Shown: positions 2,855-25,661, counted from the stretch's first letter. The stretch: DNA of 64,000 bases from an uncultured Gammaproteobacteria bacterium (GCA_963748215.1 CAVVHS010000009.1:192001-256000), one strand, 5' to 3'. Notes: generated by a model not told the origin, from the letters alone. A program made the numbers and translations.

Positions 2855-3268
2855 ATGTTACAGCCCAAGAGAACAAAATTTCGCAAGCAGCAGAAGGGTC
2901 GCAACCGCGGCCTGGCGCAGCGCGGCAGCAAGGTCAGCTTCGGTGAATACGGCCTGAAGGCGACCGACCGTGGACGCATGACCTCGCGCCAGATCGAGGC
3001 GGCGCGCCGCACCATCACGCGCTTCGTAAAGCGCGGTGGCAAACTGTGGATTCGCGTGTTTCCGGACGTGCCGATTACCAAGAAGCCGATTGAGGTACGT
3101 CAGGGCAAGGGCAAGGGCAACGTCGAATACTGGATTGCCCAGATCCAGCCAGGCCGCATGCTGTATGAAATCGAAGGCGTTTCGGAAGACGTGGCACGCG
3201 AGGCCTTCAAGCTGGCGGCGGCGAAACTGCCCTTCAAGACAACCTTTGTAGCACGGACGGTGATGTGA
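2855..3268 (+). CDS. rplP: 50S ribosomal protein L16
   Basis: [16 protein letters not shown]...[10 protein letters not shown]. Confidence 0.99.
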
Positions 3269-3471
3269 TGAATGCCGCGGATATGAGAAGCAAGACAGTC
3301 AGCGAGCTGAAGCTGGAGCTGGAGAATCTGCTGCGCGAGAAATTCAATCTCAGCATGCAGCGCGGGACTGGCCAGCTGTCGCGCCCGGACCAGATCACCA
3401 AGGTACGCAAGGATATTGCCAGGGTCAACACCGTGTTGAACGAGAAAGCGAAGGCGGGCAAGCAGGTATGA
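3268..3471 (+). CDS. rpmC: 50S ribosomal protein L29
   Basis: LLREKFNL...[15 protein letters not shown]; ATG overlaps the rplP stop. Confidence 0.97.
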
Positions 3472-12385: not shown

Positions 12386-12411
12386 ATGTGCGGTGCGTGG
12401 TATCAAAACCA

Positions 12412-12490
12412 GTCTCGCGCCACGGCGCCAAGGCGCGAAGACGCATAGAAAAAAACACTTACCACAGAGTACACGGAGATCATGGAGCAT
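12412..12490 (+). repeat. left arm of a degenerate inverted repeat (partner at 25031-25102)
   Basis: GTCTCGCGCCA...TTACCACAGAGTACACGGAG aligns with the reverse complement of 25031-25102. Confidence 0.6.
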
Positions 12491-12666
12491 GATCCAGCCC
12501 ATCAGGGGCATGGATTGCGTTCAGGAGCGGGCGTTGACCGCGATGAAATCTCGTGTACGACTACATCGACGATGCACACCGGGAAGGTGGGGCTATTTTT
12601 TACGGGCATAGCCTCTCGACCGCTACGCGGTCTCATCTTCTCCGGAATCCCGGTGAGAAATGCGGG

Positions 12667-13638
12667 CTAGAACGCTTCCATCTCTACCTCCAGATAGGCG
12701 CGGCTCACATGCGGGCCTACCCTTATATCGAAACCTGCCCAGTTGCTGTATGCCGATAATGCTTCAGTGACGATAGGCTTCATCTCGTAATCTGCAATTT
12801 GCTGGTCATAGAGTTCCCGGACCTTCGATAGCAAGGTATCAAGATAAGTCCGGTAGTTCCGGGCTATCTCGACACCGCCGACACGCCCGTGTCCTGGCAG
12901 GTAGTATTTGAAGTTCTTTTCCATGATCATATCTATTGCAGCAATATTGCCAGCGAAACTCGCGTCGGCTTCCATAATGCCCAGCAGTCCGTTCCTGATC
13001 ACATCACCTGTGAACAGCGCATCCTGGCCGACAACCTCGATCATTATGTCACTGTCGGTGTGGGCGGGGCCTGTGTGGTAAACCCGGAAACGGGTATCAC
13101 CAACCTCGATGACATCACCGTCATTCACGACCCTGTCGGGGGCGATAACCTGTTTGCCACCCGCAGTTCCCCCGGTCAGTTTCTCAATCTGCGCAAGCCA
13201 GAACTCACCATCGGCGCCCTTCACCCTGTCTTTCATTGTCGGGTGCCCATAGATGATGGCATCAGGGTAGGCCCTTCTAATGCCTTCGTTACCGAGCCAG
13301 TGATCGCCATGGGCATGGGAATCAAAGACTGCAACAACGGGATTCTGTGTAATCGACCTGATCTTTCCGGTAACCATCTCACCTGCCCACGTGCTGCCGC
13401 CTGGATCGAACACAACAACACCGGCACTTGTAAGCACGATCACCGGATTGTTGCGAAAACCGTGATTGGTTTTATTCGGCAGATCAAACGGACCATAGAT
13501 GATGTAAATAGTATCTGTGACCTGGACCAATGGATAATCGATACCGCTATTGCCTTGTTCCTCTGCGACCCCGCCCGGCGTGTAGACGAACAGCAAAACC
13601 GCCAGGGTCAGAAAAGCTGTATAGATCGGTGTTTTCAT
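12667..13638 (-). CDS. secreted MBL-fold metallo-hydrolase (SoxH-like)
   Basis: Signal peptide; SHAHGDH, PAHTDSD, FTGD and PGHG motifs; GAGGAG RBS before ATG 13638. Confidence 0.85.
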   Translation of the reverse strand: MKTPIYTAFLTLAVLLFVYTPGGVAEEQGNSGIDYPLVQVTDTIYIIYGPFDLPNKTNHGFRNNPVIVLTSAGVVVFDPGGSTWAGEMVTGKIRSITQNPVVAVFDSHAHGDHWLGNEGIRRAYPDAIIYGHPTMKDRVKGADGEFWLAQIEKLTGGTAGGKQVIAPDRVVNDGDVIEVGDTRFRVYHTGPAHTDSDIMIEVVGQDALFTGDVIRNGLLGIMEADASFAGNIAAIDMIMEKNFKYYLPGHGRVGGVEIARNYRTYLDTLLSKVRELYDQQIADYEMKPIVTEALSAYSNWAGFDIRVGPHVSRAYLEVEMEAF

Positions 13639-13925
13639 GACGGCCCTCCTCAGGCATATCAAGCCAGGCATCTCGTCTGGCATGAAACTGGAGATCCGGG
13701 CGAACTATCCTCAAATTCGTGTTGAGGTGTTTGTACTTCAGCTGACAATGGCTGAACGCTTCCACGGCCCTTTTGTGAAACACTAGCAGCAGGAGGTACT
13801 AGAATTATGTTGAAAAAATGGCGTAATTCCGGTTTTTTTATGAACTTTTAGAAACAAGAGGTTAGCAACGGACCCCTCCGGTCAATCAGATGCTGAGGGG
13901 CGCCGGAAATGCGAGGGATGCCCGA

Positions 13926-15617
13926 ATGGACGTCAACAGACAGACTCCATTTCTGGTCGAGGGCTGGCAGGTGGATCCTGCCAGCGCTGAGATGACCCGT
14001 GATGGCAAGACCATCAAGTTGGAACCCAGGGTGATGGATGTGCTGGTTTATCTGGCCAGTCGGCCCGGGCAAGTCGTATCACGAGACGAACTGGAAGCAA
14101 ACGTCTGGGTCGGAAGAGTCATAAGCTATGATGCATTAACCAGTACAGTACAGAAGCTACGCAGGGCATTCGCTGACGATGCACGGCAGCCCAGGATCAT
14201 TGAGACCCTCTCAAAGAAGGGATATCGTCTTCTGGCACCCGTCAGTTTTCCTGATGCATCGTATCAAACTGACTCATCCAGTGAAAACGTTACACATGCG
14301 CCACGATACAGCAAGCCGTGGGTACTGGCGCTCACAGTCATCACCCTGATCATAGGGCTGGCAATGCTGGCTGCAGTCATGCGGTTTGGGCCGTGGGAAA
14401 TTCCGGCAGACCTGGCCAACCAGGTGACCATGTCCAATTCCATTGCCGTCCTGCCGTTTGACAACCTGAGTGGAGATCCCGCCCAGGAGTATTTTGCCGA
14501 TGGGATGACCGATGATCTGATCACCAGGCTGGCAAGGAATCCCGGCCTTCTTGTCATTGCGCGCGACTCATCTTTCCTTTACAAGGGCCGGTCTAATGAC
14601 ATTCGTGATGTGGCCGGGAAACTCAAGGTGCACTATATCCTTCATGGCAGCATTCGGCGAGCCGGCAAACATATGTGGTTCAATGCCCGGCTGATTGATG
14701 CTGCTACGGGCAGCTATCTATGGGCGGAACGATATGAAGGTTACGTGGGCGATATTTTCGATCTGCAGGATGATGTGATCGGCAACATACTCTCTGCCCT
14801 GTCAGTCAGGGGTGATGATGAGGAGCGATCTGCTGCCCGTCTCCGGCAAACCGGTAGTCCGGAAGCTTATGAGTATTTCCTGCACGGCCGCAATCGTTTT
14901 TTTCTGTACGCCAGCAAGGATGATAATCGCAAGGCGCGTGAACTTTATCAGAAGGCAATTGAACTCGACCCCGATTACGCCGAGGCCTATGCCATGCTCG
15001 CCTGGACCTTCACCTTTGAAGCGATGAACGGCTGGAGTGAGGTGCGCGAAGATTCGCTCGCGCAAGCCCGGGCTTTGGCCATGCATGCCATTACGATCGA
15101 TAAGGAACTGCCCGTCGCCTATTTCGTAATGGGTCTCGTCTACAGGGAAAGGGGGGAGTATATGAAGGCCCTGGTGGAAGCAGAAAAAGCCATTGCCATC
15201 GATTCAAGCTATGCCAATGCGCATGTGCTGCTCGCAACACTGCTGTACTACGCAGGACGGCCGGAAGAGGGGCTGGAAAGGATAAAGGAAGCGATGAAAA
15301 TCAATCCGCATCATCCTTACAACTATCCGTTCCATCTGGGCCAGGCGTATTTCATACTCGGACGCTATCAGGAAGCGATCGAGGCACTTGAAGCAGGACT
15401 CGGAACCAACCCATCCTCGGAGCGTATGCGAGTGTGGCTGGCAGCCGCTTATGCCCAGGACGGTCGTGAAGCGGACGCGAAATGGGAAGCCGAACAGGTA
15501 TTGGCCCTGAATCCGGATTTCTCCCTGCAGCGTATCCGGCAGGCATTTCCATTCAAGGAGTCAGCAGATATTGAACGCTTTCTTGACGGCTTGCGGAAAG
15601 CCGGGATCACGCAATAG
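13926..15617 (+). CDS. CadC/ToxR-like winged-helix regulator with TM helix, TolB-like and TPR domains
   Basis: LEPRVMDVLVYLA...IETLSKKGYRL (Trans_reg_C), hydrophobic helix, SIAVLPFDNLSGDP...YFADG, TPR repeats. Confidence 0.88.
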   Translation: MDVNRQTPFLVEGWQVDPASAEMTRDGKTIKLEPRVMDVLVYLASRPGQVVSRDELEANVWVGRVISYDALTSTVQKLRRAFADDARQPRIIETLSKKGYRLLAPVSFPDASYQTDSSSENVTHAPRYSKPWVLALTVITLIIGLAMLAAVMRFGPWEIPADLANQVTMSNSIAVLPFDNLSGDPAQEYFADGMTDDLITRLARNPGLLVIARDSSFLYKGRSNDIRDVAGKLKVHYILHGSIRRAGKHMWFNARLIDAATGSYLWAERYEGYVGDIFDLQDDVIGNILSALSVRGDDEERSAARLRQTGSPEAYEYFLHGRNRFFLYASKDDNRKARELYQKAIELDPDYAEAYAMLAWTFTFEAMNGWSEVREDSLAQARALAMHAITIDKELPVAYFVMGLVYRERGEYMKALVEAEKAIAIDSSYANAHVLLATLLYYAGRPEEGLERIKEAMKINPHHPYNYPFHLGQAYFILGRYQEAIEALEAGLGTNPSSERMRVWLAAAYAQDGREADAKWEAEQVLALNPDFSLQRIRQAFPFKESADIERFLDGLRKAGITQ

Positions 15618-15667
15618 GTATCTTGTTCATCGAATGTCTCAAGCCGGTTTTTATCGAGACCCTCGCT

Positions 15668-16435
15668 CTACTGTATGGCTCGGTTATAGATGTGGTTGAC
15701 AGTTTTAACGTAGTCACGCGTTTCGCGGTACGGCGGGATACCACCATAGCGATTCACAACATGTTCTCCGGCATTGTAGGCGGCGAGCGAGAGATCGAGA
15801 TCACCCTCGTAACGATCCATGAGCCAGCGCAGATATGCCATGCCGCCCCTCAGATTCTCAATGGGGTCCCATATATCATCGACCTCGAAGCGACTGGCAG
15901 TCGCAGGCATTAGCTGCATCAGGCCGCTTGCATTCTTCGAAGAGCGGGCACGCGGATTGAAGCTGGACTCTACCTCCACGACCGCAAGCAGCAGATTCGC
16001 ATCAAGCCCATAGCCGGGGGCCATCACGTTGATCCAGGCCTCGATTGTTGCGCGGTCCGGTTTCCCATGCCTCAGGGGGCAGCCGATATCCTTCGCCGGA
16101 TGCACGCTGGGCAGCAGGTCCTCAAGAATCCGCTGTGAATGGGAGTCGCCGTGCTTTGCGGCCAGGTGAAACCACCCTGCCGCCAGCGCCTTGTCCGCCG
16201 GCACCTCCTGGCCGCTGAAGCGCATCCATCCCAGGTGGTAGGCCGCCGCGTTATCGCCCTGCAGGACGGCGATACAATGCAGGTTATAGACACTTGCGTC
16301 ATCCAGGGCAGCGTGCTGACGGTATCGGGAACCTGTTGCATCATCCCCGGCCTCCACCGTACGCAGGGTACATGAAGCCCCTGCGAGGAGCAGTAAGACC
16401 AGTTTCCATGATAACCACCGTCGCTGCATAGCCAT
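15668..16435 (-). CDS. lytic transglycosylase (SLT) with N-terminal Sel1-like repeat
   Basis: VESSFNPRARS..GLMQLMP..LAAYNAG..PPYRET; AAYHLGWM...AAGWFHLAAKHGD. Confidence 0.88.
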   Translation of the reverse strand: MAMQRRWLSWKLVLLLLAGASCTLRTVEAGDDATGSRYRQHAALDDASVYNLHCIAVLQGDNAAAYHLGWMRFSGQEVPADKALAAGWFHLAAKHGDSHSQRILEDLLPSVHPAKDIGCPLRHGKPDRATIEAWINVMAPGYGLDANLLLAVVEVESSFNPRARSSKNASGLMQLMPATASRFEVDDIWDPIENLRGGMAYLRWLMDRYEGDLDLSLAAYNAGEHVVNRYGGIPPYRETRDYVKTVNHIYNRAIQ

Positions 16436-16620
16436 GCCGGTGCCGCCGATCTGCCTGAAACAATATTATTCTTCGTCTTGTTGTTCGTATATCCGGTACT
16501 TCCTGCCAACACTAGACCACAACACAGGATCACGCAATGTCGTGTGCTAACCGGCAGACGAAGGATGCTGGAGACAGGTGAATCACCTGGTTTTCTGCGT
16601 TCCGAGTACACCGGAATCCC

Positions 16621-16714
16621 GGAAATGGTACCTTCTGGCCGGTCCCCATCCTGCAGGATTGTCTTATATTAGATTTCGGTAAAAGGCGGGAGCCGACCCA
16701 TTCCGGAAGTTTAG
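16621..16714 (+). repeat. 94-bp imperfect palindromic repeat, copy A
   Basis: Ungapped alignment with 20584-20677 (61/94) and 23128-23221 (64/94); TGGCCG...TTATAT...GGCGGGAGCCGACCCA. Confidence 0.85.
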
Positions 16715-16820
16715 TATTTGGTTATATATATCTGTTGCTTGTATGGTTGGCCTAACAGTCAAGAAGGAAAAATTACATTCTGGCTGAATAAATAAGAATT
16801 AAATTTGCGGAGGAAACCCT

Positions 16821-16901
16821 ATGAAGAAATCACGCTTACCGGGTGCGGTGTGTATATGTATATCCGTATATTCAGTTTTTTTTTGGCGAATGCTGCGCTA
16901 G
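16821..16901 (+). pseudogene. orphan signal-peptide stub of a VPLPA-CTERM-type gene
   Basis: GGAGG RBS, MKKSRLPGAVC (cf. MKSRLIGAVC at 21612); broken at the T9 tract, with ANAALV continuing in another frame. Confidence 0.6.
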
Positions 16902-16944
16902 TTACAAGCAACCTTAAATATGATTGCTTGCTCGGGGAAGCGCC

Positions 16945-17597
16945 ATGAGATTTCAGCATTGTTGGCCGGAGATAGCCTTGTTTGTCGGCACGTTGGTCGT
17001 GTCCTCGCTTTCCAATGCTGCGCTGGTATCGCACCTGAATGGCCAGGCCGTTTACGATACCGACCTCAATATCACTTGGATGGCAGATTCGACTCTGGCG
17101 GTCAGCAATACTTTTGGTGTAAACGGTATCGGTATCACAACTGGTTCCATGGATTGGAATACAGCTCAAAGCTGGATCGGATCGATGAATGCCGCCAACT
17201 ATCTTGGCTTCAGCGACTGGCGCTTACCAACAACACTAGTGCCAGACCCGACATGTGGCGGTTTTTTCGCGAACGTCAATTGTACAGGAAGCGAATTGGG
17301 GCATCTCTTTGAAATCGAACAAGCAAGCACATCCGGCCTATTCATTACAGCCGCTGAATACTATTGGTCTGATACTGAGTGCGGGTTAAATTGCGCATAT
17401 GCCTATTTTTGGCATGGCCTTGGCGCTGGAGAGCAAGTTACATTTACGAAGGATCTTAACCCACATCCTGCCAGCTCGGTTTTAGCAGGGCTGTGCGATC
17501 CGGCGATGTCACCGTTGTCCCGGTACCCACCTCCTTCTGGCTGTTCGGCTCCGGCCTGCTGGGACTGGTCGGGGTGGCAAGGAAGAAAGCGGCTTAA
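16945..17597 (+). CDS. DUF1566/Lcl-domain VPLPA/PEP-CTERM surface protein, frameshifted near 17487
   Basis: SNAALV signal, VYDTDLNITW, GFSDWRLPT; VPVPTSFWLFGSGLLGLVGVARKKAA* is in a different frame. Confidence 0.8.
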
Positions 17598-17646
17598 TGG
17601 AACCCGCCGAAACTGTCATAAGGTAGTTAGATAGGGTAATACGCCA

Positions 17647-17793
17647 ATGAAGACAAACAATCCCAGAAAGAAAAAGTCTTCCTTGATGATCTGGATTATC
17701 GCATTGGCTGCTCTGGTACTTGTGGGGATACAACTGATTCATCCGGATGGCATACGCGGACTATTGAGAGACTTCGTAATCATGTTGATGTAA
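17647..17793 (+). CDS. small putative single-pass membrane protein (48 aa)
   Basis: Manual translation MKTNNPRKKKSSLMIWIIALAALVLVGIQLIHPDGIRGLLRDFVIMLM*. Confidence 0.5.
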   Translation: MKTNNPRKKKSSLMIWIIALAALVLVGIQLIHPDGIRGLLRDFVIMLM

Positions 17794-17839
17794 TCAATTC
17801 TGAGGTCATTTCAAACACATAGAAAGCACTGGGAGGATA

Positions 17840-18049
17840 TTAACCCTGCTTGCAGCAGTCTAGTATCTCACGCAGAAGGAATTCAGCCATCATCTGCCCC
17901 TCCCTGTCGCGATGCTCTGAATATTGCATGACGTAGCAGCCGTCATATTTTGTATGGTTCATTGTTGCCGAGAGCAGGGTTTCGTATAGCTTCCGCTCCT
18001 CGTGGATGTTGGCCAGGATTACGCGTGTTTTCATGTAGACATTGTCCAA
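17840..18049 (-). CDS. hypothetical protein or gene fragment
   Basis: 69-codon ORF with no recognised motif; its 5' end abuts repeat B. Confidence 0.35.
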   Translation of the reverse strand: MDNVYMKTRVILANIHEERKLYETLLSATMNHTKYDGCYVMQYSEHRDREGQMMAEFLLREILDCCKQG

Positions 18050-18097
18050 TATCAGAAATTGCTAAAGGACGGGAACCGACCCTAATCGGAAGTACAG
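18045..18097 (+). repeat. 3' half (53 bp) of the palindromic repeat, copy B
   Basis: TCCAATATCAGAAATTGCTAAAGGACGGGAACCGACCCTAATCGGAAGTACAG aligns without gaps to the last 53 nt of A, C and D; a further TGAAC...CGGAAGTTCA mini-hairpin at 18111-18138. Confidence 0.75.
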
Positions 18098-18258
18098 CGT
18101 TTCGATCGGTTGAACTGGCAACTGAAGTCGGAAGTTCAGGAAAGCGTGAATGGGAACTCGAGCCACCAAACGCCTATTATCGGGTGGATTTTCATGAAAT
18201 AGATAAGGTAAGCTCCCCGCCCCCTATCCTTTATGCTCCCCTAAGGAGACTCCTGACG

Positions 18259-20052
18259 ATGTTGCGTAAAATTCTGCTGCCAACTATCTTTGTCATCCTA
18301 GGCTGGGGATTTTGGGTTAGTCCTGATTTCAAGACCATCGCTGCTGGAGTCTCCATCTTTTTATTCGGGATGCTGTCTCTGGAAGAGGGGTTCCAGGCGT
18401 TCGCCGGCGGCACCCTGGAGCGGATACTCAATAACACAACCGACAAGCTCTGGAAAAGCCTCAGTTTCGGTGTCATCAGCACCACCCTGATGCAGTCCAG
18501 CTCACTGGTCTCGGTAATCACCATCTCCTTCCTCAGCGCCGGCCTGCTCGATCTTGCCTCCGGGGTCGGGATCATCTTTGGTGCGAATATTGGTACCACC
18601 ACCGGTGCCTGGCTGGTCGCCGGTTTCGGTCTGAAGGTCAAGATTTCTGCCTATGCGATGCCAATGCTGGTCTTTGGTGTGCTGTTGCTGTTCCAGAAAT
18701 CCAAGAACCTGAAGGGCATCGGTTACATCCTGGTCGGCCTCGGTTTTCTGTTTCTCGGCATCCACTACATGAAAGAGGGTTTCGATGCATTCAAGGACAG
18801 CTTCGACTTGGCCAAGTTCGCTGTCGCCGGCTATCCCGGGCTGTTCCTGTTCGCCGGCATCGGCATCGCGGCAACGGTGGTGATGCAGTCCAGTCATGCC
18901 ACGCTGGTGCTGACTATTACAGCGCTTGCTGCCGGGCAGATCACTTACGATAACGCGCTCGCGCTGGCTATTGGCGCAAATGTTGGTACCACCATCACCG
19001 CCATCATCGGCTCGATGAGCGCAAACGAACAGGGCAAGCGGCTGGCTGCCGCGCACCTCATCTTCAATCTAGTTACCGGTTTGATCGCGATCGTGTTTAT
19101 CTATCAAATGATGGCGTCAGTCGAATGGATTAGCGCCCATGTCGGCATCGCCGAGGATGACTACACCTTGAAGCTGGCGGTATTCCATACCTTATTCAAC
19201 ATCATTGGCGTACTGGTGATGCTGCCGTTGATCGGCAGACTGGTCAGCCTGCTGGAAGGCCTGTTCAAACCCAAGGCCCTCCTTGTCAGCCAACCAAAAT
19301 ATCTGAACGATGCCACCATTGACTTCCCAGACACCGCGCTTGAGGCAATCCGGTTGGAGACTCTGCGGATCTGGGACCACACCATCAACATCCTGGCCGG
19401 GACTTTTGGCTTCGAGCGCGATCAGATCTGCTCTGACACCGACCTTGCGGTGGTAGCGCAGTCCCAGCGCAGACTGCCGTATTTCGATGTGGATGAGGCC
19501 TACGAACAACAGGTAAAAACACTGTACAGCGCCATCATCACTTTCATCACCCGTGCCGGATTCTCCTGGCAGGACGAGCAGTCAGGGGGCATCCACTGGT
19601 TGCGTGAAGCCAATCAGAACATGGTCGAGGCGATCAAGGCCAGCAAACACCTGCGTAAGAACCTTGTCACCGCGGTGGCATCGACAAACGAAGAACAGCG
19701 TGCGATCTACAATAATATGCGCGTTCAACTGTCACTGTTGATCCGGGAACTGGAAGAGGTTCGATCGGAGTCCGCCGATGAGTCCCCGGTGTTGTCGCTG
19801 GACCATCTGCGCCTGCTCCTGAATGATCTCTGCGAGAAATTCAACAGGCGCATGGCCGCAGCGATGACCGAAGGCCGGATATCGGGTGAGCTGGCGGTCT
19901 CGTTACTGAACGACTCCAACTACGCTCATGAGGTCTTTAGCAAGCTCGTGGAGATGGGCGAAACCCTGTTCGTAAGGCACAACCGCAGCCTCACTGATGC
20001 CGAGCATGAAGTGCTGTTGAGCGAAGACGAACTGGCCGAGCTCGAAAGCTGA
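18259..20052 (+). CDS. Na+/Pi cotransporter family protein with PhoU-like helical C-terminus
   Basis: Two QSS / GANIGTT repeats, many TM helices; AGGAGA RBS before ATG 18259. Confidence 0.92.
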   Translation: MLRKILLPTIFVILGWGFWVSPDFKTIAAGVSIFLFGMLSLEEGFQAFAGGTLERILNNTTDKLWKSLSFGVISTTLMQSSSLVSVITISFLSAGLLDLASGVGIIFGANIGTTTGAWLVAGFGLKVKISAYAMPMLVFGVLLLFQKSKNLKGIGYILVGLGFLFLGIHYMKEGFDAFKDSFDLAKFAVAGYPGLFLFAGIGIAATVVMQSSHATLVLTITALAAGQITYDNALALAIGANVGTTITAIIGSMSANEQGKRLAAAHLIFNLVTGLIAIVFIYQMMASVEWISAHVGIAEDDYTLKLAVFHTLFNIIGVLVMLPLIGRLVSLLEGLFKPKALLVSQPKYLNDATIDFPDTALEAIRLETLRIWDHTINILAGTFGFERDQICSDTDLAVVAQSQRRLPYFDVDEAYEQQVKTLYSAIITFITRAGFSWQDEQSGGIHWLREANQNMVEAIKASKHLRKNLVTAVASTNEEQRAIYNNMRVQLSLLIRELEEVRSESADESPVLSLDHLRLLLNDLCEKFNRRMAAAMTEGRISGELAVSLLNDSNYAHEVFSKLVEMGETLFVRHNRSLTDAEHEVLLSEDELAELES

Positions 20053-20108
20053 AGCGCTTGTTGCCGATAGAAAGATAGAGTGCAGAGTCATTAACCCGAG
20101 AATCCACT

Positions 20109-20357
20109 ATGAAAGAGAATAAACTCCTTACCCGCCTGGAAGGCTACCTCAACCTCAGCGCCAAACGCCGCAAGAAAAAGGCGGACGAACTAAAGGTGCT
20201 CATCGGGAAACTCAAGAAGAAGGAAAAGGCGCTGATCGCAGAGTCTCGCAAGGCCGGTAAGGGCAAGAAGCACGAAATACTGGAAAAGCGCTGCTTGGTC
20301 CTCCATGCACAACGCAAAAAAGGCCTGAAAGCACTGAAGAATATCAATAAGAAATAA
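20109..20357 (+). CDS. small lysine-rich helical hypothetical protein
   Basis: 82 aa ORF just downstream of the Na/Pi transporter, same strand. Confidence 0.7.
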   Translation: MKENKLLTRLEGYLNLSAKRRKKKADELKVLIGKLKKKEKALIAESRKAGKGKKHEILEKRCLVLHAQRKKGLKALKNINKK

Positions 20358-20583
20358 TGCGGCGATCAAGTATGGGGGCACTCTGCGTGCCGGGCCTTTA
20401 AGCGCTCCCGCGCAACATGGACTTGGATCCGTGTGGTCTAGTCTCCACCCCTGACGGGGAAACCTGCGGCTGTGCAATCGGCAACCCAGCCAATTTTTCA
20501 TCGCCTAACTGGCCCCGGTTCGCGATGAACGATTAAGAGATGGGAGCGGCAAGTATTGCATAGCTGCCTTTCGCTGGTCGCCC

Positions 20584-20677
20584 GTATAGGTCAGGAGTTG
20601 GCCGGTTCCAGTCCTACACGAGACGCTTATATAAGATTTTATTAAAAGGCGGGAGTCGACCCAACTGAGATATTCAC
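20584..20677 (+). repeat. 94-bp imperfect palindromic repeat, copy C
   Basis: TGGCCGGTTCCAGTCCT...CTTATATAAG...AAAAGGCGGGAGTCGACCCA; aligns with A and D. Confidence 0.85.
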
Positions 20678-20864
20678 GCGCATACAACTCAGACTAAACT
20701 CATACTCTGCAAGAAAAGCCTGTATTAGTGATTTACAAACAGACACGTCATTCCTTGATCAGCATCAGTTACCCCGATCTCCGTAGCTGCTATATACAAC
20801 ACAACTAGTCAAACCAGACCAATATTAGAAGATTGGAAATAATCAGAGTTTAAAGAGGAGCATC

Positions 20865-20935
20865 ATGAAGAAAAAACGCGTCTTTTAAGAGCTTTCAGCG
20901 CCTGTTTGTTTGCTCTCGTTACAGGAGGCAAGTAA
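20865..20935 (+). pseudogene. orphan signal-peptide stub
   Basis: GAGGAG RBS; reads MKKTRLLRAFSACLFALVTGGK* only if the A6 tract at 20871-20876 is corrected. Confidence 0.5.
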
Positions 20936-20937
20936 AG

Positions 20938-21615
20938 ATGGAAAGATCACGCAAAAATGGCTATCTATTTGTTGTTCTTTCAGCTCTCTTCACGTCATCG
21001 GCACACGCGGCTGTAGTGGTATATACAGATCGAGTAGCTTGGGAGACAGCCGTATTGGCGCTTCCTAGTGGACATATTCATGGTGACGTTAACTTTGAAG
21101 GAGATCCGCCTCGTGGTTTGTCTACCGGCGCAAACGCATTAAATCTACATTTCTTAACTATTGATATTGCCGGCGATCCTGGATTTAACGCAATAGACAA
21201 CTCTGTCACACCTGATCCATTTTCGGATGTCTTGTCTCCAAACGGTTCGACGTATTATCTAGGTCATGTTGGACAAAGTGCACCATTACCTTCGCTAATC
21301 TTTATCGATCTGGAGAATTCTGTTCCAGCCTTCGCTGCTGACTGGGTTGTAGCAGGTAGCTTGTCTATTCAAATCGGAGGAACAACCGTATCGTTTGCAG
21401 ATCACTTACCGACGGGTAATGGCTTTCTTGGGTTTGTTACCGATCTGATGCCTCCCGAGGCTGCATTAATTGCAAACTTGTCTAGCTCTGGCGAAGCGTT
21501 TTTTGGCATGGATGAAGTTCTCATTGTCGGCGTACCTATACCCGCCGCTATATGGCTCTTCGGCTCCGGCCTGCTCGGGTTGTTTGGGATGGCTAGGCGG
21601 AGGAAGCAGTCATGA
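20938..21615 (+). CDS. VPLPA/PEP-CTERM sorting domain surface protein
   Basis: Signal peptide SAHAAVVVYTDR; C-terminal VPIPAAIWLFGSGLLGLFGMARRRK. Confidence 0.9.
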   Translation: MERSRKNGYLFVVLSALFTSSAHAAVVVYTDRVAWETAVLALPSGHIHGDVNFEGDPPRGLSTGANALNLHFLTIDIAGDPGFNAIDNSVTPDPFSDVLSPNGSTYYLGHVGQSAPLPSLIFIDLENSVPAFAADWVVAGSLSIQIGGTTVSFADHLPTGNGFLGFVTDLMPPEAALIANLSSSGEAFFGMDEVLIVGVPIPAAIWLFGSGLLGLFGMARRRKQS

Positions 21616-22217
21616 AATCACGTCTGATCGGTGCGGTGTGCGCTGGCTTTTTTTCCCTTATTACAACTTCATCGAATGCGGCGCTCGTCGACAACGGCGG
21701 CGGGTTGATTTACGACACTGTGCTGGATATTACCTGGTCGCAGCCAGATGCCTTAAGAACCTGGGATGAAGCGAATACTTGGGCAGCAGGACTGACGCTT
21801 GGCGGGGTCAGCGGCTGGCGGCTGCCCTACATCAGTGTGGCGGCCGGAGTGGGGCCTACTAATACCTTCGTAAACTGCAACTCGGCGAGCGAGCTTGCCT
21901 GTCGTGACAACGAGCTGGGGTATATGTTCTGGCAAAACACCGACGGCACGGGCATCAGTCCCCTGTTTCCGACTATCTCTGGGACCTTCTATTGGTACGG
22001 TACTCTGTTTAGTTCCGAGGATGCATGGATATTCTTCTTCGGTATCGACGTCGGAGGAGGTGGTACCGGCGAGGCGGCCACCGACAGCATCCTCAACACT
22101 ACCAACCTCACCTGGGCTGTTCATGCTGGCAATGTGGTACCGGTACCGGCTGCGGTCTGGTTGTTCGGCTCTGGCCTGCTAGGGCTGATTGGGATAGCCA
22201 GGAAGAAAACAACGTAA
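21612..22217 (+). CDS. DUF1566-like VPLPA/PEP-CTERM surface protein
   Basis: SNAALVDNGGGLIYD, GWRLP, C-terminal VPVPAAVWLFGSGLLGLIGIARKK. Confidence 0.9.
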   Translation: MKSRLIGAVCAGFFSLITTSSNAALVDNGGGLIYDTVLDITWSQPDALRTWDEANTWAAGLTLGGVSGWRLPYISVAAGVGPTNTFVNCNSASELACRDNELGYMFWQNTDGTGISPLFPTISGTFYWYGTLFSSEDAWIFFFGIDVGGGGTGEAATDSILNTTNLTWAVHAGNVVPVPAAVWLFGSGLLGLIGIARKKTT

Positions 22218-22272
22218 CTAGCCACATAAGGATCAGTCGGGCTGAGATAATTAGAGCTACGGAGACAGTCCC

Positions 22273-23082
22273 ATGATGGAATCACGTCTGTTGTGCGCAA
22301 TGTGTGTGTTTATCATCACACTAATAGTAAGCAATCCGGCTCTTTCTGCACCAGTATTTCCCAGCGAAATCCAAGCGTGTGTTTCCACTTCAATCTGTTC
22401 TATCCCTACACTTGTCCGGCAAGCATCCACATTCAGTGCATATTCATACTCAGATGGAGGGACAGACAAATTCTTGTTTGAATACAGCTTATGGTCTTCA
22501 TCTAACGAATCGACAAACTTCGTGACGACACAGCTAACCGGCGCAGCTTGGCTCAGCGCGAACGCGACATATGATCTGACACAGGAACGCCACTTATTTA
22601 CTCTTTACCTTGACGGTGTTACGCCGACTCCCACTAATCTCTGGGTCTTTGATTCAGATGGTTTGAACGTAGGGTTAAGCATGCCTACCTCCGATCTCCT
22701 AGCCGGTAGCAGTTTTTTTCGCATGGGTTCGGACATCGCAAGCGGAGGCTTTTTTGAAGGCGATTTGGGGACCCATGGCGATCAAGGATCAGCGTTTAAC
22801 GACCATAATTTTGTCCCATGCCTTGCACTTACTTGTGAAGTAGGAGCTACGTTAAATCTATTGAACATGCAATATCTACAGTCTGGATCGATAGCCGAGC
22901 TTAGTTTAAATCCAACAGATCAGAGAGGTATTCTTTATAGCCAATATAGGGATTATGAGCCTGATAACACATGGTATGTCTCTCAATCGTACGAAGTCGT
23001 TCCCATCCCAGCCGCCGTATGGCTCTTCGGCTCCGGCCTGCTGGGCTTAATTGGGATAGCAAGACGCAAGAAAGCAGCATAA
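22273..23082 (+). CDS. VPLPA/PEP-CTERM surface protein
   Basis: Signal peptide; C-terminal VPIPAAVWLFGSGLLGLIGIARRKKAA. Confidence 0.9.
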   Translation: MMESRLLCAMCVFIITLIVSNPALSAPVFPSEIQACVSTSICSIPTLVRQASTFSAYSYSDGGTDKFLFEYSLWSSSNESTNFVTTQLTGAAWLSANATYDLTQERHLFTLYLDGVTPTPTNLWVFDSDGLNVGLSMPTSDLLAGSSFFRMGSDIASGGFFEGDLGTHGDQGSAFNDHNFVPCLALTCEVGATLNLLNMQYLQSGSIAELSLNPTDQRGILYSQYRDYEPDNTWYVSQSYEVVPIPAAVWLFGSGLLGLIGIARRKKAA

Positions 23083-23097
23083 CCCTTCTATTAAGAG

Positions 23098-23118
23098 ACG
23101 GCCCTTCGGGGCCGTTTT
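23098..23118 (+). terminator. rho-independent terminator
   Basis: ACGGCCC-TTCG-GGGCCGT-TTT. Confidence 0.8.
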
Positions 23119-23127
23119 CGTATGAGC

Positions 23128-23221
23128 ATAAATGTCGCGCTTTGGCCGATCCCTGTCCTATATGTAACTCTTATATAACGTTTCGCTAATCGGCGGAAGC
23201 CGACCCACAACGGACGTTCAG
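23128..23221 (+). repeat. 94-bp imperfect palindromic repeat, copy D
   Basis: AAATGTCGCGCTTTGGCCG...TTATATAA...GCCGACCCACAACGGACGTTCAG; aligns with A and C. Confidence 0.85.
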
Positions 23222-23330
23222 CAGTTACAAAGTTGCCGCACCCGTCCGAATTGCTCTTGACATTTGTTAGACTATGATCAGGTTACTATTCTTTCACTAA
23301 GAAGGCTATCCATAGTCAGCGGAGGTCAGG

Positions 23331-23882
23331 ATGGACAAATCAATGATAACCGGCATTGTGATTGGCGGAATCGTAGTCACGGCTGGCGCGGCAATTGGGG
23401 GCTTCAACATGCTCAGCAAGAAAGAGCCCGCATACGCGGATGTGATCAATGTTGCCGAGGTTAAAGAGACTGTACAGACTCCGCGGGAGGTCTGTGAAGA
23501 TGTAGCTGTTACCCGCCAACAACCGGTAAAGGATGAACACAAGATTCTTGGCACCGTAACAGGTGCGGTGATTGGTGGTGTGCTAGGCAACCAGTTAGGT
23601 GGTGGCAGCGGCAAGAAACTCGCCACAGTCGCTGGTGCGGCTGCCGGAGGCTATGCGGGCAACAAGGTGCAGGGGAACATGCAGGAAAAGAACACCTACA
23701 CAGAAATAGAGAATCGTTGCCACACGGTCACCGATACCCACGACAGGGTCATCGGCTACGACGTCAGCTATCGCCTCGGGGATGAAGAAGGCAGTGTCCG
23801 TATGGACAACAAACCGGGGGATCGTATTCCGGTGGTTGATGGGCAGCTAATTCTGGAATCGCCCGACGCGGTCACGCCGTAA
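23331..23882 (+). CDS. glycine zipper 2TM domain protein (YcfJ-like)
   Basis: GAVIGGVLGNQLGGGSGKKLATVAGAAAGGYAGN; GGAGG RBS. Confidence 0.9.
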   Translation: MDKSMITGIVIGGIVVTAGAAIGGFNMLSKKEPAYADVINVAEVKETVQTPREVCEDVAVTRQQPVKDEHKILGTVTGAVIGGVLGNQLGGGSGKKLATVAGAAAGGYAGNKVQGNMQEKNTYTEIENRCHTVTDTHDRVIGYDVSYRLGDEEGSVRMDNKPGDRIPVVDGQLILESPDAVTP

Positions 23883-24022
23883 TCACACATTAGTATTTTG
23901 TTCACACATCTGCAGACTGGACTGATTCTGCAATATCCAAAGCAATGGGATAAGGGTTTTATTAGCAGATTCTTCGCGCAAAGACGAAAAGAAAGCCTGG
24001 TAGCTATTTATATGTATCAACA

Positions 24023-24046
24023 GCGGCTCCTTCGGGAGCCGTTTTT
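24023..24046 (+). terminator. rho-independent terminator
   Basis: GCGGCTCC-TTCG-GGAGCCGT-TTTT. Confidence 0.8.
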
Positions 24047-24053
24047 CATTGTG

Positions 24054-24251
24054 CTGTATGTCCGAGATTGGCCGATAGTGTTGAAAAACTCTGCTACTAG
24101 AAATCGACCGCGCACGAGAGTGAGATGCTTTGTCATTTTGCAAAATATTTCGGATTTCAGGAAACTCTCATGCACGATTTCTACTTGAACATTATGACGT
24201 CAGCAGATCATTAGAGTATTTCAACACAATAGGCCGAAAGCGGAAGTACAG
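24054..24251 (+). repeat. palindromic repeat copy E (outer arms) split by a MITE-like insert
   Basis: CTGTATGTCCGAGATTGGCCGA ... GGCCGAAAGCGGAAGTACAG are mutually complementary and match the outer arms of A, C and D. Confidence 0.75.
24076..24231. mobile_element. non-autonomous MITE-like element with GTGTTGAAAAACTC-type inverted repeats
   Basis: TAGTGTTGAAAAACTCT versus AGAGTATTTCAACACAA (15/17 complementary); internal arms TAGAAATCG/CGATTTCTA; flanked by duplicated GGCCGA. Confidence 0.6.
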
Positions 24252-24317
24252 AATTCAATAGTGCGGCGGCCATCGGGTCGGCGTTTTCTTCAGTATTCAC
24301 AACAAGCCTGTGCCGGC

Positions 24318-24725
24318 TCATTCCTTGATCGTGGCAACGTAGCGGTCGAGGCCATCTGCGATGGCTGTCCGGATCCGGCTGGAGGCAAGCTGCAGCCGGT
24401 CGCTGATCTCCTCAGGGTCACCCAGGTCGGTAAGATCCTCGGCCAGCCCCCGGTCAATTCCAGTCAGGGCACGTTCAACGACGTCCTGCAGATGCTGCAG
24501 ATCCTCGATATACAGATCGGCCGGGATTGTCTCGCGCGTGCGTGCGTCAACCTCGTCATTCGATTTGTGGGTCGACTTTGCTCGGTTTTCAATGTACCAC
24601 TGGATGCAGGGGCCCAGGTCATAAAGGTCGTGTGCGTATTTGGGCATGCCTTCCCTGGCCAGCTGGCAAATGCTGGCAGCGGGCAGATTCAGGCATTCAG
24701 CCAATACCGAATGTTCTACGATCAT
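24318..24725 (-). CDS. phage terminase small subunit Nu1-like HTH protein
   Basis: LAECLNL...QLAREGMPK...YDLGPCIQWYIE resembles the lambda gpNu1 N-terminus (LADIFG...EQGMPV...YDSAAVIKWY); GAGGTG RBS. Confidence 0.6.
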   Translation of the reverse strand: MIVEHSVLAECLNLPAASICQLAREGMPKYAHDLYDLGPCIQWYIENRAKSTHKSNDEVDARTRETIPADLYIEDLQHLQDVVERALTGIDRGLAEDLTDLGDPEEISDRLQLASSRIRTAIADGLDRYVATIKE

Positions 24726-24864
24726 GTCGTCACCTCGCCAGCTAAACCGCGTCAGGTGTATGGGTATTATACCATATAAATAACAAGGTATATTGATTGC
24801 AGGGAGAGTAATTTTTATTTCAGTGCGGTCCGCATGACACGCTCGGGAAAAAAATAATCTGAAT

Positions 24865-24900
24865 CTGAAAGGCTTCTTCCGGCCGTTTCACGAAGTACGG
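24865..24900 (+). repeat. degenerate minimal (36-bp) repeat, copy F
   Basis: CTGAAAGGCTTCTTCC-GGCCG-TTTCACGAAGTACGG has the same length and layout as copy E without its insert. Confidence 0.4.
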
Positions 24901-25030
24901 CAGTGCATTCACAGGGAATAACGAAGGGTAAGAAATGGGCTGTTCGACCTCGAATACCGGTCACTTCCTGGCAAGCCAGTAGCTGATGCAGAACAGTTAC
25001 TGGCTTCCTGCTTCACGGGAATGACAATCA

Positions 25031-25102
25031 TTCAGCTCCTGTATGCTCCGCGCCCTCTCTGGCAATTGTTTTTCTTTGCATCCTGATATCCTGGCGCGAG
25101 AC
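25031..25102 (-). repeat. right arm of a degenerate inverted repeat (partner at 12412-12490)
   Basis: Reverse complement reads GTCTCGCGCCAGGATATCAGGATGCAAAG...TTGCCAGAGAGGGCGCGGAG. Confidence 0.6.
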
Positions 25103-25163
25103 AGTGTTGTATCTGAATTTTCTGCGTCTCAGCGCGGGTTCCTTTTCGTGATTTTCCTCCCGT

Positions 25164-25661
25164 CTATAAAAAATCCTCGATGAACCAGGCCGCGAAGGCG
25201 TGCCGGCCGGTGACGCCGGACTTGCGGTAGATGCCGGAGGCCTGCGCGCGCACGGTCTTTTCCTGCGTCTGGCGCAGGGCGGCGATCTCCTTGAAGCTCA
25301 GGCCCTTGAGCAACAACAGCCCGACCTCCTGCTCGCTGTCGGTAAGGTCCCAGTCGTGGAACTGGGCCTGGATGAGGCCGCCGAGTTGCCGGCGTGCCTC
25401 GGCCACCGCCGGTGGCGGGGCGGTGGCGGGATTGCGGTGCGCGGCAAGCTCGTGCCGTAGCTGTTCCAGCTCGCGGCGCTGCCGGCGCAGGTCGGCAAGC
25501 AACCAGAGCATGAGCGCACCCGAAACCACGATGACAGTTGCCTCCTCCAGCAGGTGCAGAACGGATGCACCCTGGCCAAAATCGGTGACGAAATCATACA
25601 GGTTGCCGAGGATGATGACGGACAGCACGGCGATGAGCAGTTTTTCTTTTATGTAGAACAT
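25164..25661 (-). CDS. membrane-anchored LuxR-type HTH regulator
   Basis: Two TM helices, then LTDSEQEVGLLLLKGLSFKEIA...TVRAQASGIYRKSGV. Confidence 0.82.
   Translation of the reverse strand: MFYIKEKLLIAVLSVIILGNLYDFVTDFGQGASVLHLLEEATVIVVSGALMLWLLADLRRQRRELEQLRHELAAHRNPATAPPPAVAEARRQLGGLIQAQFHDWDLTDSEQEVGLLLLKGLSFKEIAALRQTQEKTVRAQASGIYRKSGVTGRHAFAAWFIEDFL

Follow-up and report, generated by a model that had tools for sequence, protein, structure and literature searches.

Integrons are the textbook route by which bacteria stockpile and shuffle single-gene cassettes, and integron cassette arrays, including clusters of attC sites lacking integron-integrases (CALINs), are reportedly delimited by attC sites of the kind that IntegronFinder addresses. 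The pdif modules and the integrative mobile elements exploiting Xer recombination (IMEX) are said to be Xer-dependent, while accretion arrays of cis-mobilisable elements and tycheposon-type islands have reportedly been described as well. A different class of intergenic sequence is formed by the enterobacterial repetitive intergenic consensus (ERIC) or intergenic repeat units (IRU), the bacterial interspersed mosaic elements (BIME) and the repetitive extragenic palindromic (REP) sequences, the latter being targets of insertion sequence (IS) insertion. The present work deals with a stretch of 64,000 nucleotides from an uncultured Gammaproteobacteria bacterium (the window; part of contig C9 of the 3.5-Mb genome G000), in which a family of short repeats separates unrelated gene modules between positions 16621 and 24900; in the following, G-numbers denote genomes compared and L- and X-numbers denote loci and metagenome contig sets. 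The repeat is restricted essentially to one genus and bounds swappable accessory modules in low-GC islands, and it is tentatively suggested, as the best of the readings considered, that its copies may serve as junction sites of an integron-independent module-exchange process driven by a putative enzyme.

Within the window, three full copies composed of left arm, centre and right arm were located, i.e., copy A at 16618-16729 (94-bp core 16621-16714), copy C at 20582-20688 (core 20584-20677) and copy D at 23126-23230 (core 23128-23221), which score 82.0 bits (E 3.2e-24), 79.2 bits and 81.5 bits, respectively, with R1, a covariance model built on sequence only that was used alongside an nhmmer profile. 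An earlier note on this DNA had counted ungapped matches of 61 (A/C) and 64 (A/D) out of 94 positions by hand; recomputation returned the same values and 62 for C/D, compared with 24.6 +/- 4.7 positions at which random 94-mers from the window agree. Copy B (18045-18104), described as a half copy, indeed aligns with R1 over the centre and the right half alone (model positions 48-107, 29.2 bits) and is preceded by a short left-arm-like sequence, GTAGACATTGT. It is followed by an arm-only junction (18105-18141), where a left-arm-like sequence runs into the right arm GTCGGAAGTTCAG ahead of the sodium/phosphate (Na/Pi) transporter module. Copy E (24054-24251) is arm-only, with the left arm at 24054-24074 and the right arm at 24232-24251, and the different insert reported between its family-type outer arms is a 157-bp miniature inverted-repeat transposable element (MITE). 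The degenerate copy F (24865-24900) did not hold up to the same degree, as it resembles an arm-only form by eye only and is matched neither by nhmmer nor by the covariance model. As had been claimed, all window copies are intergenic and all, the arm-only junction and F included, lie on the plus strand; the fixed length attributed to them was not borne out, with indels of -12 to +17 and with arm-only, half and tandem forms.

Comparison of 69 distinct copies, whose mean identity is 59%, revealed the element to be a mosaic of a left arm (..GAAYGKC..TTGGCCG), a conserved centre of about 55 nt (..TATATAAG..TAA..RAGNCGA) and a right arm (CCC..CGGAAGTTYAG), the arms being inverted repeats of each other and the motif CGACCC closing the centre and opening the right arm. 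TATATAAG and CGACCC are the best-kept blocks. The left arm often follows a terminator hairpin at a distance of about 10 nt, even at copy A, where the terminator-like hairpin (16575-16589, +) is found without a co-oriented upstream gene; similar hairpins precede D, where GGCCCTTCGGGGCC is followed by a T run, E and many copies elsewhere. Next to E without its MITE, arm-only forms are represented by five tandem units in a gene-less stretch of G006, and units of centre plus right arm are doubled in tandem at C8:22139 and C8:82982.

A scan of the genome and its relatives, which had been proposed, identified a real family with about 20 copies in G000 (22 nhmmer matches at E<0.05 and 20 R1 matches at E<=1e-3). 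These form about six arrays, namely that of the window on C9, three on C8 and one each on C7 and C5, next to single copies on C1, C5 and C6. Every array resides in a stretch of low-GC open reading frames (ORFs; GC 0.43-0.59 vs 0.60-0.67 outside). Among the sister genomes of the genus that were searched, 22 of 24 gave an R1 match (1-26 matches each), co-oriented arrays also being found in G023, G006, G012, G001 and G017, whereas of 16 genomes from other families of that class just one gave a match, and this was weak. A scan with a 16-mer of the centre yielded, among the matches listed, mostly unrelated taxa, as chance expects of a 16-mer; out of 13 such matches tested with R1, eight loci turned out to be true members, all of them from a single-cell genome or from bins assigned to the Gammaproteobacteria or Pseudomonadota. 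Rfam gave no match at the gathering score in the window and none at E<=1 in 16400-25200, copy A found no match among plasmids by blastn, and a limited literature search, which is no proof of absence from print, retrieved no description of the repeat family.

The main alternative assumes a passive ERIC-, BIME-, REP- or MITE-like repeat that accumulates in the intergenic DNA of islands and marks module boundaries only because these are intergenic, which we regard as possible but doubtful. The copies share with ERIC/IRU and BIME/REP the size of about 100 bp, the imperfect intergenic palindrome, the conservation at genus or family level and the role as IS target, and shorter (internal deletion), longer (fixed-site insertion) and tandem sub-unit forms, as in ERIC and BIME, occur here, too; their position after terminators and their divergence fit such a repeat equally. 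Dispersal as known for these elements was, however, not observed: the roughly 20 copies are all confined to islands in a few co-oriented arrays, and the 13 neighbouring pairs no more than 6 kb apart, where random placement expects 0.78, are co-oriented without exception. Moreover, target-site duplications were not seen around the full copies inspected, synteny breaks at fixed positions of the element, and the shared arms would probably be too short and too divergent for RecA-type recombination.

The positions of these breaks were obtained from genome comparisons that are all between species. As a major outcome, homology breaks recur at the arm/centre boundaries, i.e., at fixed places in the element, and the repeats are linked to accessory-gene boundaries at which modules were found to be present, absent or relocated. 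Of the outcomes that were named in the note as refuting its inference, neither scattering in the manner of ordinary REP or MITE elements, nor a missing link to accessory boundaries, nor a match to an attC model was observed. The Na/Pi module (18121-20604, +) comprises a cotransporter gene (18259-20052, Pfam PF02690), a gene for an 82-aa partner (20109-20357) and a 3' untranslated region, and shares 85-87% identity with its sharply delimited counterparts in G047 and G012, which exceeds the 78% of rpoA-rplQ between G012 and G000. In G000, G012, G047 and L191 its homology begins at one base (18118-18121), before the right arm GTACTGAAGTCGGAAGTTCAG, while upstream of this common start different left-arm-like sequences are found. 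The homology ends at or just past the left arm in G000, G012, L192 and L212, the arm reading TTGGCCG in three of them and being a variant in L212; in G000 the module's 3' end is a left arm ending in TTGGCCG. The aldolase-Dabb module of a C8 array starts at the same base, GTACTGAATCC, in six of six genomes, preceded by ..GTAGGTCAGGAAY or another left-arm-like sequence, and in G000, G018, G013 and G024 a left arm is found no more than about 100 nt behind it, while none is visible in G050 and G042. The module consisting of a metallo-beta-lactamase (MBL)-fold hydrolase and a regulator is missing with a clean junction in G045, its flanks being 93-94% identical, is bracketed by two repeat copies in G023 and terminates in G000 in the left-arm-like GAATGTCTCAAGCCG. 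For the 135-aa gene that follows E, homology in G009 begins at the right arm of E (24232), and in G008 a piece of this gene (window 24535-24790) lies about 370 bp from a homologue of another array's flank. That independent breakpoints recur on the same element base across modules and genomes is not what a passive repeat would lead one to expect.

Contigs from four metagenome runs of two studies were aligned to the island and showed joins of the same kind. Contigs of X1 and X2 join 20665 to 18121, the 40 intervening letters being the junction of G012, and a contig of X6 (depth 3.2) joins 18120 to 24235, combining the left side of the Na/Pi junction with the right arm of E in the same register; the joins at the Na/Pi junction thus fall at 18120/18121. 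Further contigs join 20639 to 24069 (X1, depth 8.9) and 17595 to 18048 (X5, depth 10.3), and a variant contig of X1 enters at 23201, the centre/right-arm boundary of D, where a contig of X5 begins at 23202. These joins are alternative arrangements in related strains and not excision events. Contig depth is low over 20638-23092 in all four runs; this was not taken as absence, since only a single contig (X1, 20639 to 24069) bridges the interval. Within the metagenomes of the Joint Genome Institute, where 26 of 80 returned Na/Pi loci were analysed, the Na/Pi pair was found in 10 distinct upstream contexts (18 flanks) and 13 downstream contexts (19 flanks). As a separate observation, the Na/Pi pair of another lineage (about 88% nucleotide identity; L189, L190, L193 and L242) is cut tightly at its start and stop codons, and in L190 direct repeats of another gene's 3' end (..HWKQGIEHQ..) border it on either side, so that this cargo would seem to have a further and different way of being inserted.

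It is tentatively proposed that modules are exchanged, inserted or lost at the boundary between the arms, where a site-specific process, acting in trans and independently of the integron integrase, would then cross over or insert. The diverse cargo and the lack of a recombinase in the arrays are in line with the tentative idea of the repeats as junction sites. In a more specific and rather doubtful version, the arm pair (..TCCG..TTGGCC G..CGGAAGT..) would form the core of the site used by a cassette system that does not depend on integrons and has not been described before, in which self-expressing modules of one to three genes are assembled by serial crossover at the arms at several hotspots and may circulate within a genus of marine-sediment Gammaproteobacteria. 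Several findings weigh against the junction-site reading. Homology ends 45-70 nt before copy C in G047, L217 and L218, starts 60 nt after E in G044 and, as judged by BLAST, stops at the stop codon of the aldolase module, and the empty site of G045 shows no recognisable arm pair. As all comparisons are interspecies, no single gain or loss event was caught, and since module boundaries must be intergenic and the elements fill these stretches, some coincidence is built in. The metagenomic joins come from assembled contigs with some short sides (23-42 nt) and may reflect related strains, while most metagenomic Na/Pi contexts lack the repeat, with an nhmmer match in one of 32 loci and arms seen by eye in four. 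Searches for recombinases and transposases in G000 revealed no acting enzyme, and given that the copies are only about 59% identical and devoid of structural covariation they could be old and inert. Either outcome would be of relevance, because the genus-wide arrays share the logic of integrons (co-oriented repeats, unrelated cargo, several loci per genome) and yet are neither attC nor follow an integrase, and because they vary between species and within populations, with a canonical integron in the same genome as internal control. Should the repeats be true recombination substrates, they would represent a second, independent solution to cassette accretion, with cassettes that carry their own expression signals. 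Should they be passive, an ERIC/BIME-like element would be seen to label the places where modules meet in the flexible islands of sediment bacteria that are abundant, and it would still be useful for delimiting accessory modules in metagenome bins.

Among known systems, a likeness exists to integron arrays and CALINs, where short, co-oriented imperfect palindromes likewise lie between unrelated small cargo, with the recombinase gene elsewhere; as in attC sites, the central part of the repeat varies in length while the arms are conserved. The repeat family is nevertheless not attC. G000 possesses a canonical chromosomal integron (C2:80000-99000; L006), which serves as internal control and encodes an integrase (C2:97400-98338, TIGR02249, 443.7 bits) that is broken by one in-frame TGA, next to an array of AAGCCGACGCC-type attC sites, at least 22 in number, located on the minus strand between small genes; among the latter are toxin-antitoxin-like pairs. 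R2, an attC covariance model derived from eight canonical attC sites of G000, recovers 22 sites in this 19-kb stretch, 14 of them outside its training set, but when applied to the window and the array loci (182 kb) it does not pick up a single copy of the repeat, not even at E<=10. In line with what had been claimed, RYYYAAC/GTTRRRY boxes are absent from the repeat consensus (of both 15 and 69 copies), whose ends read ..gAAnGnC.. and ..GAcnTtcag; AAC/GTT occurs near the ends of a minority of copies only, and the pair 12-116 shows no covariation. Within the genus, IntI was found in 19 of 37 genomes. G000-G024 include 23 genomes that bear the repeat, 11 with and 12 without IntI, the latter including the 95-98% complete G014, G015, G018 and G024, while G007 holds three IntI genes and no repeat. 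IntI was consequently ruled out as acting enzyme, as its distribution does not follow the repeat and R2 misses all copies. That the repeats are strongly diverged attC sites on which the integron integrase acts, which would make the arrays CALINs, is on these grounds very improbable, notwithstanding the IntI encoded by the genome, the co-oriented arrays flanking small cargo modules and the resemblance of RAGYCGACCC to AAGCCGACGCC. Two further differences point the same way: the breakpoints of the repeat lie between its arms and not at the 3' R' box as for attC, and the modules, unlike integron cassettes, seem to come with 5' regions (100-300 nt) and terminators of their own. The one other notable match of R2 is a lone canonical-type attC (C8:298169-298230; L009 10169-10230, minus strand; 22 bits, E 0.013), which is placed in reverse orientation within a C8 repeat array, where it terminates genes of the minus strand on their 3' side, and which gives the impression of one integron cassette sitting among repeats that are not attC.

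Retained pairing of an imperfect hairpin, and selection on structure as in attC sites, had been proposed for the full copies. The consensus is in fact palindromic, with 19 pairs drawn by hand and 69.1% paired compared with 31-48% when slid, a property which would also suit a passive repeat. Yet column shuffles pair at 68.9%, 241 out of 500 being at least as high, RNAalifold predicts no pairs on the aligned copies, and single-strand folds of the full copies are no better than those of shuffles (z +0.82, +0.14 and -0.86). As the consensus is palindromic but its changes are uncompensated, selection on hairpin structure is not supported, and neither the retained pairing nor the attC-like constraint could be upheld.

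With respect to the enzyme, the earlier note had inferred action in trans by a tyrosine recombinase or an HUH-type enzyme and had stated that the window holds no integrase or transposase. The latter agrees with the present data, as no tyrosine, serine, Y1, Y2 or IS110 match of the genome falls into the window, where DDE transposases were not screened. A recombinase was found neither within nor beside the arrays (20 ORFs scanned). The former proposal gained little from the genome-wide set of tyrosine recombinases, which is very small and consists of XerC, XerD, the broken IntI and one integrase fragment only; a serine recombinase was not found in G000, and Y2 fragments and two IS110-type genes are present. 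Five Y1_Tnp genes resemble those for REP-associated tyrosine transposases (RAYT), and none has a repeat within 700 nt (nhmmer, E<=10), unlike what is expected for REP sequences and the REPIN formed by them; a link to RAYT was not found. Candidate catalysts could be the host Xer proteins, a RAYT-like HUH protein, an IS110-type recombinase or an enzyme on an unassembled element, and that a dedicated enzyme was not found is also what a passive repeat would predict. The resemblance to pdif modules and IMEX concerns modules without a recombinase inside that are bounded by short recombination sites, on which a housekeeping enzyme or one provided in trans would act, in a genome where XerC and XerD are the sole intact tyrosine recombinases. 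Unlike pdif sites, the repeats are directly repeated and not alternating, and they bear no likeness to the host dif; the only dif-like site of G000 within four mismatches is C6:438289, and none within eight mismatches lies in any array, which is why dif likeness was dismissed. As in accretion arrays and tycheposon islands, cargo piles up at hotspots and is separated by repeated att-like scars, but here the repeats are not the 3' ends of tRNAs or genes, are mutually divergent, occupy several hotspots per genome and have no associated integrase.

Transposable elements of several kinds were identified in or beside copies, which is in accordance with a passive, IS-targeted repeat. A DDE transposase gene (DUF772 and DDE_Tnp_1; C8:80445-81881, corresponding to L008 12445-13881, minus strand) cuts the copy at C8:81937 at its right arm, and a second one is found at C8:294146 beside another array; both are simple insertions. 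IS1182-like as well as IS200-like elements are represented. A classical IS200 tnpA adjoins pieces of the repeat in two of five cases examined (G008:C9 and G011:C282). In G008:C9 (L183, tnpA at 2955-3440) the right end of the IS abuts repeat centre and right arm, and in G045:C93 (L184, tnpA at 1887-2318), on the left flank of an array locus, the gene occupies the place of the first repeat of the G000 array at C8:16509. An origin of the repeat from IS200/IS605 was rejected, given that the ends of these IS are CCACCGGCTTTAGCCGGTGG-type hairpins unlike the arms, and for the same reason the tnpA cases look like insertions into or near repeats. The MITE of copy E (24075-24231) has terminal inverted repeats of ATAGTGTTGAAAAAC and a 5-bp duplication, GGCCG; further copies are found at C8:301611-301779 (duplication GTCCG) and C7:345234-345403 (GGCCG), and in three of three cases, which concern three different elements, the MITE resides at the exact centre of an arm-only element. 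That another element strikes this very spot speaks for the junction-site reading, while a centre targeted by a MITE would equally suit a passive repeat. In L188, from a metagenome, a related MITE with the ends AGGCTGTGCAAAAAC was seen at the same position of an arm-only element.

That the best-kept blocks of the element are short motifs and not pairs would fit protein binding, and a cis-regulatory element, either a terminator/insulator or the operator of a dedicated regulator, for which the CadC-like wHTH-TPR protein would be an example, spread along with the modules, was considered on this basis; it is an unlikely explanation. The terminator hairpin belongs to the unit even where a co-oriented upstream gene is missing, and the CadC-like regulator adjoins arrays in G000 and G023, but at the DNA level six other arrays of G000 lack such a regulator nearby. 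Furthermore, copies between convergent genes (C5:98288 and C7:348703) or after a divergent gene (A and C1:28188) document that the element keeps no constant position, be it 5' or 3', relative to genes, and the downstream genes are functionally unrelated. Sigma-70-like sites number three in the region compared with 8.8 expected, none of them in any repeat; a sigma-54 or sigma-70 promoter in left arm and centre was rejected, since on visual inspection the motifs are not spaced as required and scanning located no promoter within the repeats.

A further alternative regards the repeats as leftover flanks of duplicated VPLPA-CTERM genes, whose 3' tail, terminator and downstream DNA would have been copied together with the paralogues. 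Five copies (D, C8:296913, C8:297994, C8:299812 and C7:343557) directly follow a VPLPA-type tail and terminator, the tails themselves being repeated. This reading is contradicted by the copies that lack an upstream VPLPA gene, as A, B, C, C8:19944, C8:22139, C5:98288 and C1:28188 are preceded by genes that are unrelated or on the opposite strand, and it also has to face arm-only units in gene-less tandem arrays and family members that border Na/Pi, aldolase and MBL modules in other genomes, all of which renders it highly implausible.

The array of the window is part of an accessory island (12396-25162) located between the rplQ terminator and core genes for LuxR, cytochrome b561 and YkuD, the same locus holding 270 bp in G008, 823 bp in G002 and about 200 bp in G018 as compared to 12.8 kb here. 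The earlier view of unrelated accessory modules between co-oriented repeats was substantiated: each module consists of one to three genes, opening (5') with a right arm and closing (3') with a left arm. The island begins with the MBL-regulator module (12497-15646), composed of the genes for the MBL-fold hydrolase (12667-13683, -) and the CadC-like wHTH-TPR regulator (13890-15617, +). It is followed by a gene for an SLT transglycosylase (15668-16435, -; Pfam PF01464), the left neighbour of copy A, for which homology in other genomes stops 10-45 nt short of A. Most of the gene assignments of the note hold true, namely VPLPA-CTERM, Na_Pi_cotrans and glycine zipper, with the correction that the first VPLPA gene (Lcl_C/VPLPA-CTERM, 16924-17634, +) is frameshifted, its sorting signal (17507-17597) being in another frame; an orphan signal-peptide ORF at 16821 is part of this broken first VPLPA-type gene (16821-17634). 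Downstream of the Na/Pi module and copy C, three VPLPA-CTERM genes form one module (20938-23082, +; genes at 20938-21615, 21612-22217 and 22273-23082), with TIGR03370 above cut-off in two of three, and a glycine-zipper gene (23331-23882, +), assigned by a match to the family Rick_17kDa_Anti, forms the next. The 135-aa gene (24318-24725, -) had been called Nu1-like, an assignment that fell away, as it matches no Pfam or NCBIfam family.

Two further repeats were noticed in the island. A separate 61-nt repeat (window 12610-12670) has copies of 93-97% identity at C8:281335 and C6:221316 and is also present at many loci of G044, G045 and G049. Finally, both island borders (12400-12500 and 25090-25160) and an intergenic stretch of G008 (L045) carry inverted GC-rich motifs of the CTCGCGC..GACGC..AGAGAA type, which may constitute another repeat family.

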